Notes: generated from the sequence alone by a model not told the origin. A stretch of 64,000 nt of DNA from Vulcanimicrobiota bacterium (GCA_050486105.1 JBJHCR010000001.1:14510-78509); one strand, 5' to 3'; shown: positions 24,944-40,447, numbered from the stretch's first letter. Translations and numbers: made by a program.

Positions 24944-27900
24944 ATGGACAGGATCGCCCATCTGGGGCAACCCGGGGTCAACCCAAAGATCGGTTCCGGG
25001 CGCTCGGGGAAGGACTCCGAGGGTCTCGGCTCTGCAGAGCATGAGCCCACCGATCTGCTCCAAATTGGACTCAAAGTTGAGGGCCCTGTCCAGGGGGACT
25101 CCCAGGCCGAGTCCGGGATTGTCCAGACCCCCCGGCAACTTGCTGGGGAGGGGGGGGTGGACAACCTTCAAGAGAGGTCTCCGGCTATTCAGGCTTTGAC
25201 TGCTGCTGATTCTCAGTCCTGGAACCAGCCTTTGCTGCTCGAAGATCACCAGGCCGAAAGCCTCCAGATCGAACTCCAGGCCAACGGCCAAACTATCACC
25301 GACCAGATCTTCGCTGCGGCCCACGGGACGACTCCCTCCGCCCCTTCGACGACCACAGGGGTGAGCACTACGAATACGGCGGTCTCGGAAGTCTCCAACC
25401 ACTCCTCGACTTTGACTGCCGACGGGTCTGTCCAGACCCGACAAGCGGCCAAGGCTGCGGTGAAGCAAACGCCCGAGCAGCCCGGGAGCACTCCAGCCCA
25501 GCGCCTGGGGTTGTTCCGCCGTCTGGGACACGCTTTCCTGAGTGTGCTGACCCCGGATCCCATGTCGGAGTTCCGCAAGGAATTGGAGCAAGTGGACTCC
25601 CTGGAAACCGTGGCCCAAGAACTCAAGACTCCGGAGGATTTTCAGGCCAAGACCTCCGACTTCAAGGCCCGCCTGGCAGCCGGGGCTTCCTTGGAAGAGT
25701 TGCGGCCCGAAGCCTACGCTGTGGCCCGGGAAGCCTCCCGGCAGGCCCTTGGCATGCGGGCCTATGAATGTCAGGTGCTGGGGGCCCTGGCCATGGACGA
25801 TGGCCGCATCGCTGAGATGAAGACCGGAGAAGGCAAGACCCTGGCAGCGGTGATGCCGCTCTACCTGAACGCCCTCATGGGTCAAGGAGCCCACCTGATC
25901 ACCGTGAACGACACCCTGGCCACCCGAGATGCCGAAGAGATGGGCCCGGTTTTCGAGCGTTTGGGATTGTCCGTAGGGGTGGTCACCGAGACCATGACCA
26001 CCGAGGAGAAGCGAGCTGGGTACGGAGCCGACATCACCTACACCACCGATCGCGCTCTGGGCTTTGACTATCTTCGGGATCGCACCGCCCGAAGCCCCAG
26101 CCAACGGGTTCAAAGAGAACCCTTCTTTGCCCTGATCGATGAAGTGGACGAGGTGCTCCTCGACGAGGCTCGCACTCCGCTGATCCTTTCTGGCACCGGG
26201 TCGGACAACAGCCAAGAATACCAGTTTTTCAACCGGGTAGTGAAAGACTTGGAGATCGGGACTGACATCCTCATCGACCAGGAAAAGCAGCAAGCCTGGC
26301 TCACCGACACCGGCTATGAGCGGGTGGAGACCAAGTTGCAGGCCATGCACCTGACGGAGCTTCTCGAGGGAGGAGGGGATCCCGAAGAACAAGAGCGCAT
26401 CCAAGGCGATCTGGACCTTTGCCAACAGTATTTTCAAACTCTCACCGCCGAGCAAGAGGCTTTCGCCAACCTTCGGGCGGCCGAACGCGCGAAACCGGGA
26501 TGGCTGAGCCGGATGCGCGGTGCCGAGTGGGACCAAGAGGGGCTCGAGGCGGCTCGGGCTCTCTACGCTGAGGCTAAGGCCCAGCGCCTAGAGCAAGCCG
26601 AGACCGTACCCCGGTTTGGCTTGTTCACCGAGGAGAACGAGCATCGAGTGGGCTTCCTGGACGCCTGCGTCAAGGCTCACGCTCTTTTTCAGCAGGGCAA
26701 AGACTACCTGGTGTCCGGGGACGCAGTGGAGATCGTGGACGCCAACAAAGGCCGAACTTCCGAAGGTCGGCGCTATAACGATGGGGTTCATCAGGCTTTG
26801 GAAGCCAAAGAAGGGGTGACGGTGCGGCGAGACCAGAAGATCACCGCCTCGATCACCTATCCTAATCTTTTCAAGCGATACCCCCGTTTGGCTGGCATGA
26901 GTGGCACCGCCAAGACTTCCGAGGCCGAGTTGGTGAACCTCTACGGTCTTGAGGTGGTGCCGGTGCCCACCAATCGGCCAGTGATTCGCAAGGATGAAGA
27001 CGATCTCGTTTTTGCCACTCTGGAAGACAAATACCAGGCCTTGGCTCAAGAGGTGGCCGAAGATTATCAGGCCGGGCGTCCAGTGATGATCGGGACTTTG
27101 TCGGTAGAGCACAACGTGTACGTGGCCAAGAAGTTGGTGGAGGCTGGAGTACCCCGAGAGGTGATTCAGGTCTTGAACGCCGAGACCGTGCGGGGTGATA
27201 AGCGGCTCGAAAACCAGGCCATCAGCCAGGCCGGGCGCTCTGGGGTGGTCACCGTGGCCACCAATCTGGCCGGAAGGGGCGCCAACATCAAGCCGGACCT
27301 GGTCAATTTCAAAGAGTTGGCCGAAGCCGTGGCCGAAGCCCAACACCAGGGACGCCCAGTCTTGGTCTGCCTGGAAAAAAAGGCCGAAGCCGAATGGCTA
27401 CAAGGCTGGCTGGCGGGTATGGAGACCTCGATCTCCCAGGCCGGTGGCGAGATTCCCACGACCTTCAGCCCAGTGCAGATCCAGTATGGAGAAGAGGCCG
27501 GAACCCCGTTGCCGGGAACCCTGGCTGAAGACACCTTGGTTTTGCGCGGCCAAGACTTCCCCACCGGGGGGCTGACGGTTTATGGCACCGAGCGCTCCTC
27601 TTCAAGGCGAATCGACGACCAACTTATTGGCCGAGCGGGTCGTCAGGGAGCCCCGGGTCGCTCGCAGTTTTTTCTGAGCCTCGAAGATGATCTGCTGCGA
27701 GTTTTTGCCGCCTCGGACCTTCCCAAGGGTCAGCAGTTGCTCACCACCCCCGGGGTCGGAGTGAGCGATGCCGGCCTCACCAAATTGGTGGCCCAAGCCC
27801 AGTTTCGGGTGGAGAGCAAAAGTTTCGAGGCTCGGGAGACCACCAGCGAGCAAGACGAGGTGATGAATCTCCAACGCCAAGCCTTCGACGGACTGCGAGA

Positions 27901-39413: not shown

Positions 39414-40447
39414 GACAGAATTCCGAAGCCCTCTCAAATCCTTCGGTCGCATTTCGGTCTCTTTCGACTCTGGTGTCTTCTGGGGTACCGATTCACGAGT
39501 CGCTGCTTTTGTTGTCGTCTTCGGCTCACCAAGAAGGTGAGAGGACTCTTTTTGAAAACTTGGCCTCGAGAGTCGCTGCCGGTCGAACTCTGTCGGCAAG
39601 TTTCGGTCTTTATCCCCATGTCTTTTCCAGCTACATCGTGGGACTCATAAGAATGGGAGAACAGACGGGCGCTCTGGCTCAGGTTTTAGAGACGATCTCC
39701 ACTCACGCGGAAAAATCTGCGGCGTTGAGAATGAAACTCAGGAGTGCGACCATCTATCCAGGAATACTCACTCTTGGCTCCCTGCTCTTGATGCTGATCG
39801 GACCTCCGTACCTTCTTCAGGGTCACTTGACTATGCTCAGCCAATCAGGGACCGAGTTACCTTGGTCAACTCGCGCATTGATCGGCTGGAATGGAGTGCT
39901 TAGATCCCCGTTTTTCGTTCTCGGAGCCTTGCTGGTCTCAGTCGGCTTGGTTCTGGTGCTAGGTGACCGGGGTCGCAGAAGAGGCCTGTGGCTGTGGTTG
40001 CACCGAGTCCCCATTCTTGAGGCGCTCTTGAAGCAAATGGCGACGGCTAGATTCTGCCAGGGCTTAGAGGTGGCTTTGAAGGCCGGCATGCCAGTTATTC
40101 AGGCTCTTCCTCTGGTAGCTTTCGCCTCCAACGACCCATTGCTGGAAGAGCGAATTTCGGTGGCCACGCAAAGGCTTGCCCACGGTGAGTCGGTGAGCCG
40201 ATCTCTGGCCGCGATGGATTTCTTTCAATCTGGATTCGCTTCTCTTCTCGAAAGCGGGGAAGAAGCAGGAAAGCTTCCTTTAGCCTTGGGGACCTTAGCC
40301 CATTTCGCCGAAATGCACCTGGATGCCACCCTTGAACGTTTCACGACGCTGATTGAGCCGGTGATCTTGCTCTTTATGGGTGCAGTGACAGCCGCAGTCC
40401 TGGTGGCGACTCTTACTCCCACCATCACCATATTACAGACTCTCTAG
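39410..40447 (+). CDS. GspF/PilC/TadC-family type II secretion / type IV pilus platform protein (T2SSF domain)
   Basis: T2SSF-like segments (LSTLVSSGVPIHESLLLLS..., FCQGLEVALKAGMPVIQALPLVA...) with 3-4 TM helices. GTG start overlaps the FHA gene stop (atGTGa). Confidence 0.7.
   Translation: MRQNSEALSNPSVAFRSLSTLVSSGVPIHESLLLLSSSAHQEGERTLFENLASRVAAGRTLSASFGLYPHVFSSYIVGLIRMGEQTGALAQVLETISTHAEKSAALRMKLRSATIYPGILTLGSLLLMLIGPPYLLQGHLTMLSQSGTELPWSTRALIGWNGVLRSPFFVLGALLVSVGLVLVLGDRGRRRGLWLWLHRVPILEALLKQMATARFCQGLEVALKAGMPVIQALPLVAFASNDPLLEERISVATQRLAHGESVSRSLAAMDFFQSGFASLLESGEEAGKLPLALGTLAHFAEMHLDATLERFTTLIEPVILLFMGAVTAAVLVATLTPTITILQTL

Follow-up and report, generated by a model that had tools for sequence, protein, structure and literature searches.

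What brings a second SecA-like ATPase, three pilin-like proteins, a very large annexin protein, a receptor Ser/Thr kinase and a candidate transcriptional activator together in one short interval, and do their genes act as a single system? The question is raised by positions 24944-40447 of a 64,000-nucleotide stretch of DNA from a Vulcanimicrobiota bacterium (GCA_050486105.1 JBJHCR010000001.1:14510-78509), which we refer to as the window. An initial annotation had proposed that nine adjacent genes of this interval form one non-canonical secretion locus, in which the extra SecA drives export or assembly, GspI/J/K-like proteins form a pseudopilus tip, and kinase signaling acts through a regulator with FHA and SARP-type domains.

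Here, we describe a computational dissection of this interval and of its counterparts in relatives, whose loci are designated by L numbers. The open reading frames (ORFs) and coordinates of the proposed locus hold, with ten ORFs called in the interval; the single conserved neighborhood does not, since relatives split the gene set and keep two sub-associations of it rather than the nine-gene unit. We lean, with some reserve, toward a reading in which the interval combines a SecA2-like gene, paired with a gene for a 392-aa membrane protein (p392), and a kinase/FHA-SARP regulon comprising a type IV filament tip set, a paralog of the platform protein and an annexin membrane protein with a probable Cys-peptidase domain, with the motor, major pilin and prepilin peptidase encoded elsewhere.

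Results

Two divergent promoter regions share a conserved direct repeat

Domains were assigned by Pfam and NCBIfam cutoffs to the approximately 50 ORFs called across the 64-kb window. The block at 28507-40447 appears to be organized around two divergent promoter regions. From the first, the 374-aa gene would be read in one direction and the genes for the giant, PilX-, PilV- and PilW-like proteins in the other; from the second, the small repeat protein gene would be read in one direction and the genes for the Ser/Thr kinase, the FHA-SARP regulator and the PilC-like platform in the other. The features of the block are as follows.

28507..29631, minus strand: 374-aa protein, no transmembrane (TM) segment predicted; conserved divergent partner of the giant protein
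29668..29686, plus strand: repeat site 1, TTCCGAAT-CCA-TTCCGAAT, with a period of 11 bp; 69 bp before the giant gene; candidate site for the FHA-SARP regulator
29755..33486, plus strand: giant protein, 1243 aa; annexin, hydrophobic segment, C-terminal peptidase-like domain
33567..35183, plus strand: PilX/ComZ/GspK-type tip minor pilin, 538 aa; leader G/FSAGG without Glu5; beta-solenoid in the pilin fold
35168..35572, plus strand: PilV/GspI-like minor pilin, 134 aa; leader G/FSLGE; 16-bp overlap with the upstream gene
35550..36140, plus strand: PilW/GspJ-like minor pilin, 196 aa; leader G/LTLAE; 23-bp overlap with the upstream gene
36161..36505, minus strand: small repeat protein, probably 114 aa; CHPDSQCPxC N-terminal motif and two 23-aa tandem repeats; maximal ORF to 36643
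36564..36582, plus strand: repeat site 2, TTCCGAAT-CGA-TTCCGAAT, 59 bp before the start of the small protein and 122 bp before the kinase gene
36705..37985, plus strand: receptor Ser/Thr kinase, 426 aa; signal peptide, ectodomain of ~90 aa, TM segment 113-135, Hanks kinase domain
38013..39413, plus strand: FHA and SARP-type regulator, 466 aa; N-domain, FHA 138-205, putative winged helix-turn-helix (wHTH) ~225-330, BTAD 343-453
39410..40447, plus strand: platform protein of the PilC/GspF family, 345 aa; two T2SSF domains; 4-bp overlap of its start with the regulator gene

The pattern TTCCGAATNNNTTCCGAAT has two perfect sites of 16 specified bases in the 64 kb, both of them in divergent promoters, and none elsewhere: site 1 lies between the 374-aa and giant genes, and site 2 between the genes for the small repeat protein and the kinase. 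The small protein, whose tandem repeat measures 69 bp x 2 (36207-36344), most likely starts at the ATG at 36505, where a ribosome-binding site, AGAGGAGA, can be read from the sequence; this start gives 114 aa, and repeat site 2 is therefore intergenic. ORF overlaps of 16, 23 and 4 bp, indicative of translational coupling, join PilX/PilV, PilV/PilW and regulator/PilC-like genes, respectively.

The shared 11-bp-spaced repeat, already reported in the initial annotation, proves to be real and is kept at orthologous promoters in L016, L018 and L020. The giant/374-aa intergenic region of L020 contains the repeat TTCCGAATCCGTTCCGAA with no mismatch, and that of L018 contains two degenerate copies. 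In L016 one repeat precedes the trio of pilin genes and another, at 12637-12654, lies 56 bp before an 85-aa gene that follows the trio and shares the CHPDSQCP motif, in the same orientation as in the window (59 bp). Because this noncoding element of 16-18 bp is kept while the proteins are 39-59% identical, it is best regarded as a functional cis-element. SARPs recognize direct repeats spaced by 11 or 22 bp close to the -10/-35 region (PMC10936776), and direct repeats with the 11-bp spacing are found both in the window and in relatives. As the repeat fits this target architecture and the FHA-BTAD protein is the only SARP-type gene product at the locus, we infer that this protein may be the one that binds it. 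The giant/374-aa pair, the pilin trio and the small repeat protein would thus probably constitute one regulon through the shared repeat. Of the co-regulation of two halves that was first envisaged, one probable regulon is retained on the strength of the conserved repeat, and the SecA2-like gene, which has no repeat site before it, is set apart.

A kinase and an FHA-BTAD regulator stay with the pilin trio through rearrangement

The receptor kinase matches Pkinase in Pfam (E 4e-45, 154.7 bits), with no Pfam match for its ectodomain alone. In the regulator, FHA (34.9 bits against a cutoff of 20.7) and BTAD (PF03704, 38.9 bits against 22.1) are both above cutoff, and the segment that includes the pre-BTAD region, residues 218-440, aligns to an AfsR-like BTAD/NB-ARC protein (29% identity, E 1e-10). 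A scan of metagenome contigs with the FHA-BTAD alignment returned three distant SARP fragments, of which the one at L022 supports the pre-BTAD homology. The platform protein contains two T2SSF domains (E 2e-40), aligns to residues 83-411 of Myxococcus xanthus PilC (3jc8, E 8e-36), and has the three hydrophobic segments of the GspF/PilC family (~112-137, 162-188 and 311-345). It lacks ~65-80 N-terminal residues and falls below the GspF/PilC equivalog cutoffs, reaching 190 bits against 424 for NCBIfam GspF. A scan of genome contigs with this protein returned only PilC/GspF relatives of 21-25% identity (Desulfobacterales, Bacteroidia and others), with no synteny information. The Ser/Thr kinase, FHA-BTAD and GspF-like assignments stand at the domain level.

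Three genomes, represented by the window, L016 and L024, combine kinase, FHA-BTAD regulator and trio, each in a gene order of its own; in the window and L016 a PilC-like gene is present as well. In L016, the closest relative (59% identity), the kinase is followed by two small genes, FHA/BTAD, T2SSF, a repeat protein on the minus strand, the trio and a small CHPDSQCP protein; in L024 the trio has the kinase gene on one side, divergent from it, and the FHA/BTAD gene behind it, in convergent orientation. The kinase orthologs next to these trios are 51% (L016) and 45% (L024) identical to that of the window, the regulator orthologs, with a conserved N-domain, 54% and 45%, and the platform ortholog of L016 49%. 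The persistence of kinase and regulator beside the trio through three arrangements, at 45-51% and 45-54% identity, therefore points to function rather than fixed-order inheritance. The proposed kinase-to-FHA-SARP signaling pair is in this way supported by gene content and by its recurrence next to orthologous trios in L016 and L024, in gene orders other than that of the window.

Two further features of L016 touch this gene set. A second, paralogous PilX/PilV/PilW trio (40/35/29% identity) lies at 1509-3788 on the minus strand, divergent from the kinase gene, and a tandem-repeat protein (GGITDDRKP... repeats) is encoded between the platform gene and the main trio.

The pilin trio resembles the core minor pilins of type IV pili

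None of the three pilin-like proteins has a Pfam match, nor do the two small ones when searched alone; Pfam N_methyl matches one homolog only, in L020. All three have a class-III leader followed by a hydrophobic N-helix, as class-III signals do, and cleavage of the leader is predicted. Glu5 is present in both small proteins and absent from the large one, a pattern kept in the orthologs. A confident structure model of the 538-aa protein (pLDDT 79.6) predicts a ComZ/GspK-type pilin with an ice-binding-protein-like beta-solenoid between its last two pilin strands, which, together with the missing Glu5, is as in tip pilins of the ComZ/PilX/GspK type. The PilV-like protein has weak N-terminal NCBIfam matches to PilV, Verru_Chthon B and ComGE, and its orthologs always adjoin PilX-like orthologs; the PilW-like protein has weak N-terminal NCBIfam matches to XpsI, ComGG and HpsC, and L23 and E25 of its leader motif are invariant in 7 orthologs. 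The assignment of the two small pilins to V or W is by size only, and profiles of both found nothing significant in the Protein Data Bank (PDB).

Six other loci keep the trio together, and in three of these, L004, L005 and L025, it is found alone; the L004 locus contains an extra 187-aa gene. That the three prepilin-type proteins form a GspK/I/J-type tip set, as the initial annotation held, is supported by the class-III leaders in the orthologs and by the model of the 538-aa protein. Given these leaders and the ComZ-type architecture, the description as a GspI/J/K-like tip is structurally right, and the closest described relatives are the core minor pilins of type IV pili. The trio fits the ComZ/PilX type of these at least as well as it fits a type II pseudopilus.

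A rare annexin giant and its conserved divergent partner

The giant protein begins with a disordered N-terminus, followed by annexin repeats at ~100-465, a Gly/Ala-rich hydrophobic segment at 581-616, Gly-rich sequence to ~745 and a C-terminal domain at ~890-1200. Pfam recognizes one annexin repeat (PF00191, 35-40 bits, the cutoff being 25), and annexin VI can be aligned, over one of its four-repeat halves, with residues 101-415 (E 1e-12). No Pfam family covers the C-terminal domain, and a profile of it found nothing significant in the PDB; Gln908, Cys913, His1170 and Asn1187 stand out in it. A full-library HMMER search with this domain (window 32401-33483; P0157-P0304) defined a family of 180 representatives. 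When 50 distant members were aligned, Gln, Cys and His were invariant and Asn was kept in at least 90%, in papain order. The family has a "...RNPWG" motif, and it is almost wholly unannotated in Pfam, with only 2 of the 50 members matching Peptidase_C39_2. The Gln-Cys-His-Asn order, with weak fold matches, makes the domain a probable clan-CA cysteine peptidase. Of the initial description of the giant as an annexin and papain-like peptidase protein, the annexin part stands above its cutoff, and the papain-like part is carried by the residue pattern and the weak fold matches only.

In its full length the giant family is very rare (4-7 clusters). Its divergent pairing with the 374-aa gene is found in three genomes, the window, L018 and L020; in the two relatives the 374-aa orthologs are 45% (L020) and 35% (L018) identical, and no SecA is nearby. 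The 374-aa protein has no Pfam, NCBIfam or PDB match and no hydrophobic segment. It had been described as an alpha-helical partner of unknown function; its gene is on the minus strand and convergent with the SecA2-like gene, with a 4-bp overlap, and its conserved partner is the giant.

Could the trio, the GspF-like platform and a borrowed ATPase form a minimal type II secretion-like pseudopilus that acts as a piston to export or present the giant, with the 374-aa protein as chaperone or immunity protein and the kinase/FHA-SARP pair as a trigger on contact? The components are adjacent to the giant gene here, but only in this window does that gene adjoin the trio. Type II secretion requires a periplasmic step, for which the giant lacks a classical signal peptide, and a beta-solenoid tip pilin is typical of ComZ/PilX of type IV pili and not of GspK of type II systems. 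Furthermore, secretin and major pseudopilin were not seen: GspD, GspE, GspG and GspO have no Pfam match among the window ORFs or within 10 kb in L016 and L024, and none of GspD, E, G, H, C, L, M and O of type II secretion was found in the 64 kb. We therefore consider such a pseudopilus unlikely. For the GspE/PilB ATPase, secretin, prepilin peptidase and major pilin, the absence noted in the initial annotation agrees with the Pfam search over the window ORFs.

The conserved neighbor of the SecA2-like gene is p392

The genes relevant to the SecA question lie at both ends of the block and just beyond it.

24944..28510, plus strand: SecA2-like paralog, 1188 aa; four SecA Pfam domains; judged to lie outside the regulated cassette
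40712..41890, plus strand: p392, a 392-aa Gly-rich membrane protein with ~4 TM segments; conserved neighbor of the SecA2-like gene, not of the cassette
42488..45163, plus strand: canonical SecA, 891 aa, with SEC-C zinc motif; context, 2 kb past the interval

The SecA2-like protein is indeed a divergent second SecA. It contains SecA_DEAD, PPXD (PP_bind), the second P-loop and the wing/scaffold (SW) domain (Pfam E 1e-101 to 3e-22), has no Pfam match to the SEC-C zinc motif, and falls below the NCBIfam cutoffs both for SecA equivalogs (NF009538, 751 bits against 814; TIGR00963, 737 against 800) and for SecA2 equivalogs (TIGR03714, 603 against 930; TIGR04221, 451 against 725; NF012136, 484 against 1100; TIGR04397, 647 against 1085). 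It is distinguished by an N-terminal extension and by insertions of ~80 aa in PPXD and ~100 aa in NBD2, which have no Pfam match on their own. Identity to the canonical SecA of the window is 45/41/28%, and the ATPase motifs (Walker A, DEVD and the NBD2 motifs) are intact and align with those of the canonical protein. SecY2, Asp, glycosyltransferase (Gtf) and other known SecA2 partners are absent from the window ORFs.

Homologs of the SecA2-like protein form ~110 clusters of 1000-1690 aa, without SEC-C, and distant ones are labelled Eremiobacterota, Vulcanimicrobiota or Armatimonadetes. Orthologs of 53-57% identity occur in three genomes (L001/L002, L003 and L017), none with a pilin, platform, giant or orthologous kinase/regulator gene nearby. 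Their conserved neighbor is p392, whose orthologs (54-59% identity) directly follow the SecA2-like gene in L003 and L017, and in L001 are encoded 7 kb downstream of it. p392 itself belongs to no Pfam or NCBIfam family, and a PDB sequence search found nothing significant. The SecA2-like gene and p392 thus appear to be a lineage-wide pair, separate from the cassette; as the two are adjacent in relatives, it follows that in this window the pair is separated by ~12 kb of other genes.

These observations bear on the proposal of one secretion machine, in which SecA would power export or assembly, the GspK/I/J-like tip would stand on the GspF-like platform and the giant would be the substrate. In its favor, the genes are adjacent in this window, the 64 kb contain no GspE/PilB ATPase by Pfam, the SecA2-like ATPase motifs are intact, and the giant has no classical signal peptide. 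Against it, SecA2-like orthologs occur in three genomes in unrelated contexts with p392 as the conserved partner, and no SecA lies near the cassette orthologs of L016, L024, L018 and L020. The SecA2-like protein is not dedicated to the giant, since ~110 clusters of the one face 4-7 of the other; its gene has no repeat motif upstream and converges on the 374-aa gene. Additionally, pilin polymerization is not known to be driven by any SecA. A single SecA-powered machine is therefore very improbable, and the divergent SecA is not supported as the motor of the unit; the SecA-driven pseudopilus was dropped, as SecA2-like orthologs never adjoin cassette genes.

Several observations concern the surroundings of the two SecA genes. 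Small PilZ and YchJ/SEC-C genes are often found downstream of the SecA2-like/p392 pair. In the 600-bp gap upstream of canonical secA lies a 30-nt inverted repeat, 87% complementary, with arms 107 nt apart (41887-41916 / 42024-42053), and a second, 16-nt pair (41897-41912 / 42293-42308); either a leader structure or what remains of a small element could account for them. Three putative endonuclease genes of the Uma2 family are present (23696-24823, 45176-45778 and 63198-63746), two of which bracket the region from the SecA2-like gene to canonical SecA. L017 and L020 were recovered from marine samples. Finally, L003, L005 and L024 all come from sample ERZ26696514, at 6.4-7.7x coverage; if they represent one genome, then SecA2-like/p392, a lone trio in I-J-K order and the kinase-trio-FHA/BTAD set lie on separate contigs of 0.3-1 Mb.

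Surroundings of the interval

GC content is even across the window, and the 28507-40447 block has neither flanking repeats nor an integrase or a genuine tRNA that would mark it as a mobile element. ARAGORN called a 95-nt tRNA-Asp with anticodon ATC at 52484-52578 on the minus strand, but this lies inside the SLH-domain ORF 51089-53920 and is almost certainly a false positive. Rfam found no match over 20-48 kb, and promoter and terminator scans did not rise above shuffled expectation. LptC/B/F genes and SLH-domain proteins encoded in the window suggest that the organism is diderm. The two large SLH-domain proteins (855 and 943 aa; 48371-53920, plus strand), downstream of secA/prfB, are presumably outer-membrane tethers of a diderm Terrabacteria-type envelope. 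Two further Gly/Ala-rich membrane proteins without a family are encoded on the minus strand at 21326-22654 and 53986-55413; BLAST gave no similarity between them, or of either to p392 or the giant, and the idea of a resemblance was rejected. The region 53986-58306 was considered as a further pilin trio and rejected on its N-termini.

Discussion

In the reading that we lean toward, the receptor kinase would sense an extracytoplasmic cue through its small outer domain, and phospho-threonine signaling would engage the FHA domain of the SARP-type activator, which, seated as a tandem dimer on the 11-bp-spaced TTCCGAAT repeats, would turn on both promoter regions. The three minor pilins would then assemble into a complex that primes and tips a type IV filament, with the PilX/ComZ-like beta-solenoid protein, lacking Glu5, at the apex and the PilV- and PilW-like proteins below it, and the dedicated PilC-like platform would be where this complex nucleates. 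A type IV pilus machine encoded elsewhere would supply in trans the ATPase, the major pilin, the prepilin peptidase and, if there is one, the secretin; type IV pili are made by the sole cultured member of the Eremiobacterota (PMC9758169). The annexin/Cys-peptidase membrane protein would be co-regulated cargo, as would its cytoplasmic partner, the two being perhaps an effector with its chaperone or immunity protein, or a membrane-remodelling factor.

Several observations weigh against this regulon. The association of kinase, FHA-BTAD regulator and trio is known from two comparator genomes only, and of these L024 has no PilC-like/T2SSF gene within 10 kb and no recognizable repeat next to its trio. 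In L004, L005 and L025 the trio stands alone, and a fourth core pilin (FimT/FimU/GspH-like) is absent among the ORFs next to the trio of the window. The giant adjoins the trio in this window only, L020 having a distant trio at 7.5 kb and L018 none. In none of the loci was a motor, major pilin or peptidase found nearby. In the regulator, neither the wHTH nor the N-domain has a Pfam match, Trans_reg_C being missed even when the isolated segment was searched. The TTCNGAA core of the repeat is palindromic, and another type of regulator could therefore bind it; the best -10-like hexamer, TAAACT at 29703, lies 17 bp from the repeat, where 8 bp would be canonical.

Some of these points would also be expected if the genes were juxtaposed by chance, with the kinase and FHA-BTAD protein regulating something else, the repeat bound by an unrelated regulator, and the trio a spare set of minor pilins: the lone trios, the wHTH without a Pfam match and the palindromic core all fit, and kinase and FHA genes are abundant, unrelated ones lying near the SecA2-like gene in L001 and near the trio in L005. 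Yet orthologous kinase and FHA-BTAD genes (45-54% identity) flank orthologous trios in three genomes despite rearrangement, and the repeat sites are confined to these loci and kept across 39-59% protein identity. We accordingly hold mere coincidence to be improbable, and continue with the kinase/FHA-SARP regulon.

For the trio, the nearest described counterparts are the PilX-PilV-PilW(-FimT) sets with a beta-solenoid PilX that prime specialized filaments in cyanobacteria (bioRxiv 10.64898/2026.02.12.705559), and ComZ, the tip pilin of Thermus thermophilus, which has the same architecture (ComZ/PilA2; PMC6561018). The set described here differs in lacking the fourth, FimT/FimU-type pilin, in its linkage to a PilC-like paralog of its own, a receptor Ser/Thr kinase and an FHA-SARP regulator, and in its apparent co-regulation with an annexin/peptidase giant. 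Compared with the GspK-GspI-GspJ/GspF apparatus of type II secretion, not only are the remaining Gsp components missing and the GspF score low, but the solenoid is inserted at the ComZ position, in place of the alpha-domain of GspK.

The regulatory genes recall PknH-EmbR of Mycobacterium tuberculosis and AfsK-AfsR of Streptomyces in the adjacent Hanks kinase, the combination of FHA and BTAD in one regulator and the 11-bp direct repeats (PMC10936776). The domain order, however, is N-domain-FHA-(wHTH)-BTAD, with the wHTH putative, rather than the wHTH-BTAD-FHA order of EmbR; the phylum lies outside the Actinobacteria; and as candidate targets, pilins, a platform and a membrane protein take the place of cell-wall or antibiotic genes.

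Like the accessory SecA2 proteins (SecA2/SecY2 of Firmicutes; SecA2 alone in mycobacteria, Listeria and Bacillus), the SecA2-like protein is an additional SecA of divergent sequence that keeps its ATPase motifs, lacks the C-terminal zinc motif and is encoded beside a canonical SecA. It differs from them in scoring below four SecA2 cutoffs, in its larger size (1188 aa), in the lack of SecY2, Asp and glycosyltransferase genes, and in having as its partner an uncharacterized Gly-rich protein of 4 TM segments. Bacteria are already known to encode multidomain annexins in fusion with protease or toxin domains and with TM anchors (Kodavali et al. 2014, PMC3894181), and the giant likewise joins annexin repeats, a hydrophobic anchor and a putative C-terminal protease. 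Its C-terminus, however, is clan-CA-like rather than a metalloprotease, lipase or colicin-D-type toxin, and its family is very rare, with a conserved divergent partner gene and a promoter repeat.

Two bolder proposals, together or singly, we consider decidedly doubtful. One is that the kinase/FHA-SARP switch builds a specialized type IV filament, standing on a PilC-like platform of its own, by which the annexin/Cys-peptidase protein would be deployed or anchored against another cell, as a contact-dependent weapon or adhesin of new architecture. The other is that the SecA2-like protein and the 4-TM, Gly-rich p392 are a previously undescribed accessory Sec pair, apparently limited to Eremiobacterota and relatives.

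An attractive but unsupported SecA-driven pseudopilus is removed, and a widespread SecA paralog with a conserved membrane partner is flagged. A rare family that joins annexin repeats to a probable cysteine peptidase is defined together with its conserved partner gene, as is a probable peptidase-domain family with an invariant Gln-Cys-His core that is mostly unannotated in Pfam. Should the kinase/FHA-SARP regulon prove true, it would be, as far as the literature was searched, the first SARP-type activator coupled to a Ser/Thr kinase via FHA that controls the priming proteins of a type IV filament, a search for BTAD together with pilins having returned false matches only. It would place such a regulon outside the Actinobacteria, in a barely cultured phylum, and would provide a cis-element, TTCCGAATN3TTCCGAAT, with which to map the regulon in metagenome-assembled genomes. 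The most useful leads are this conserved promoter element and the rearranged yet persistent association of kinase, regulator and pilins.

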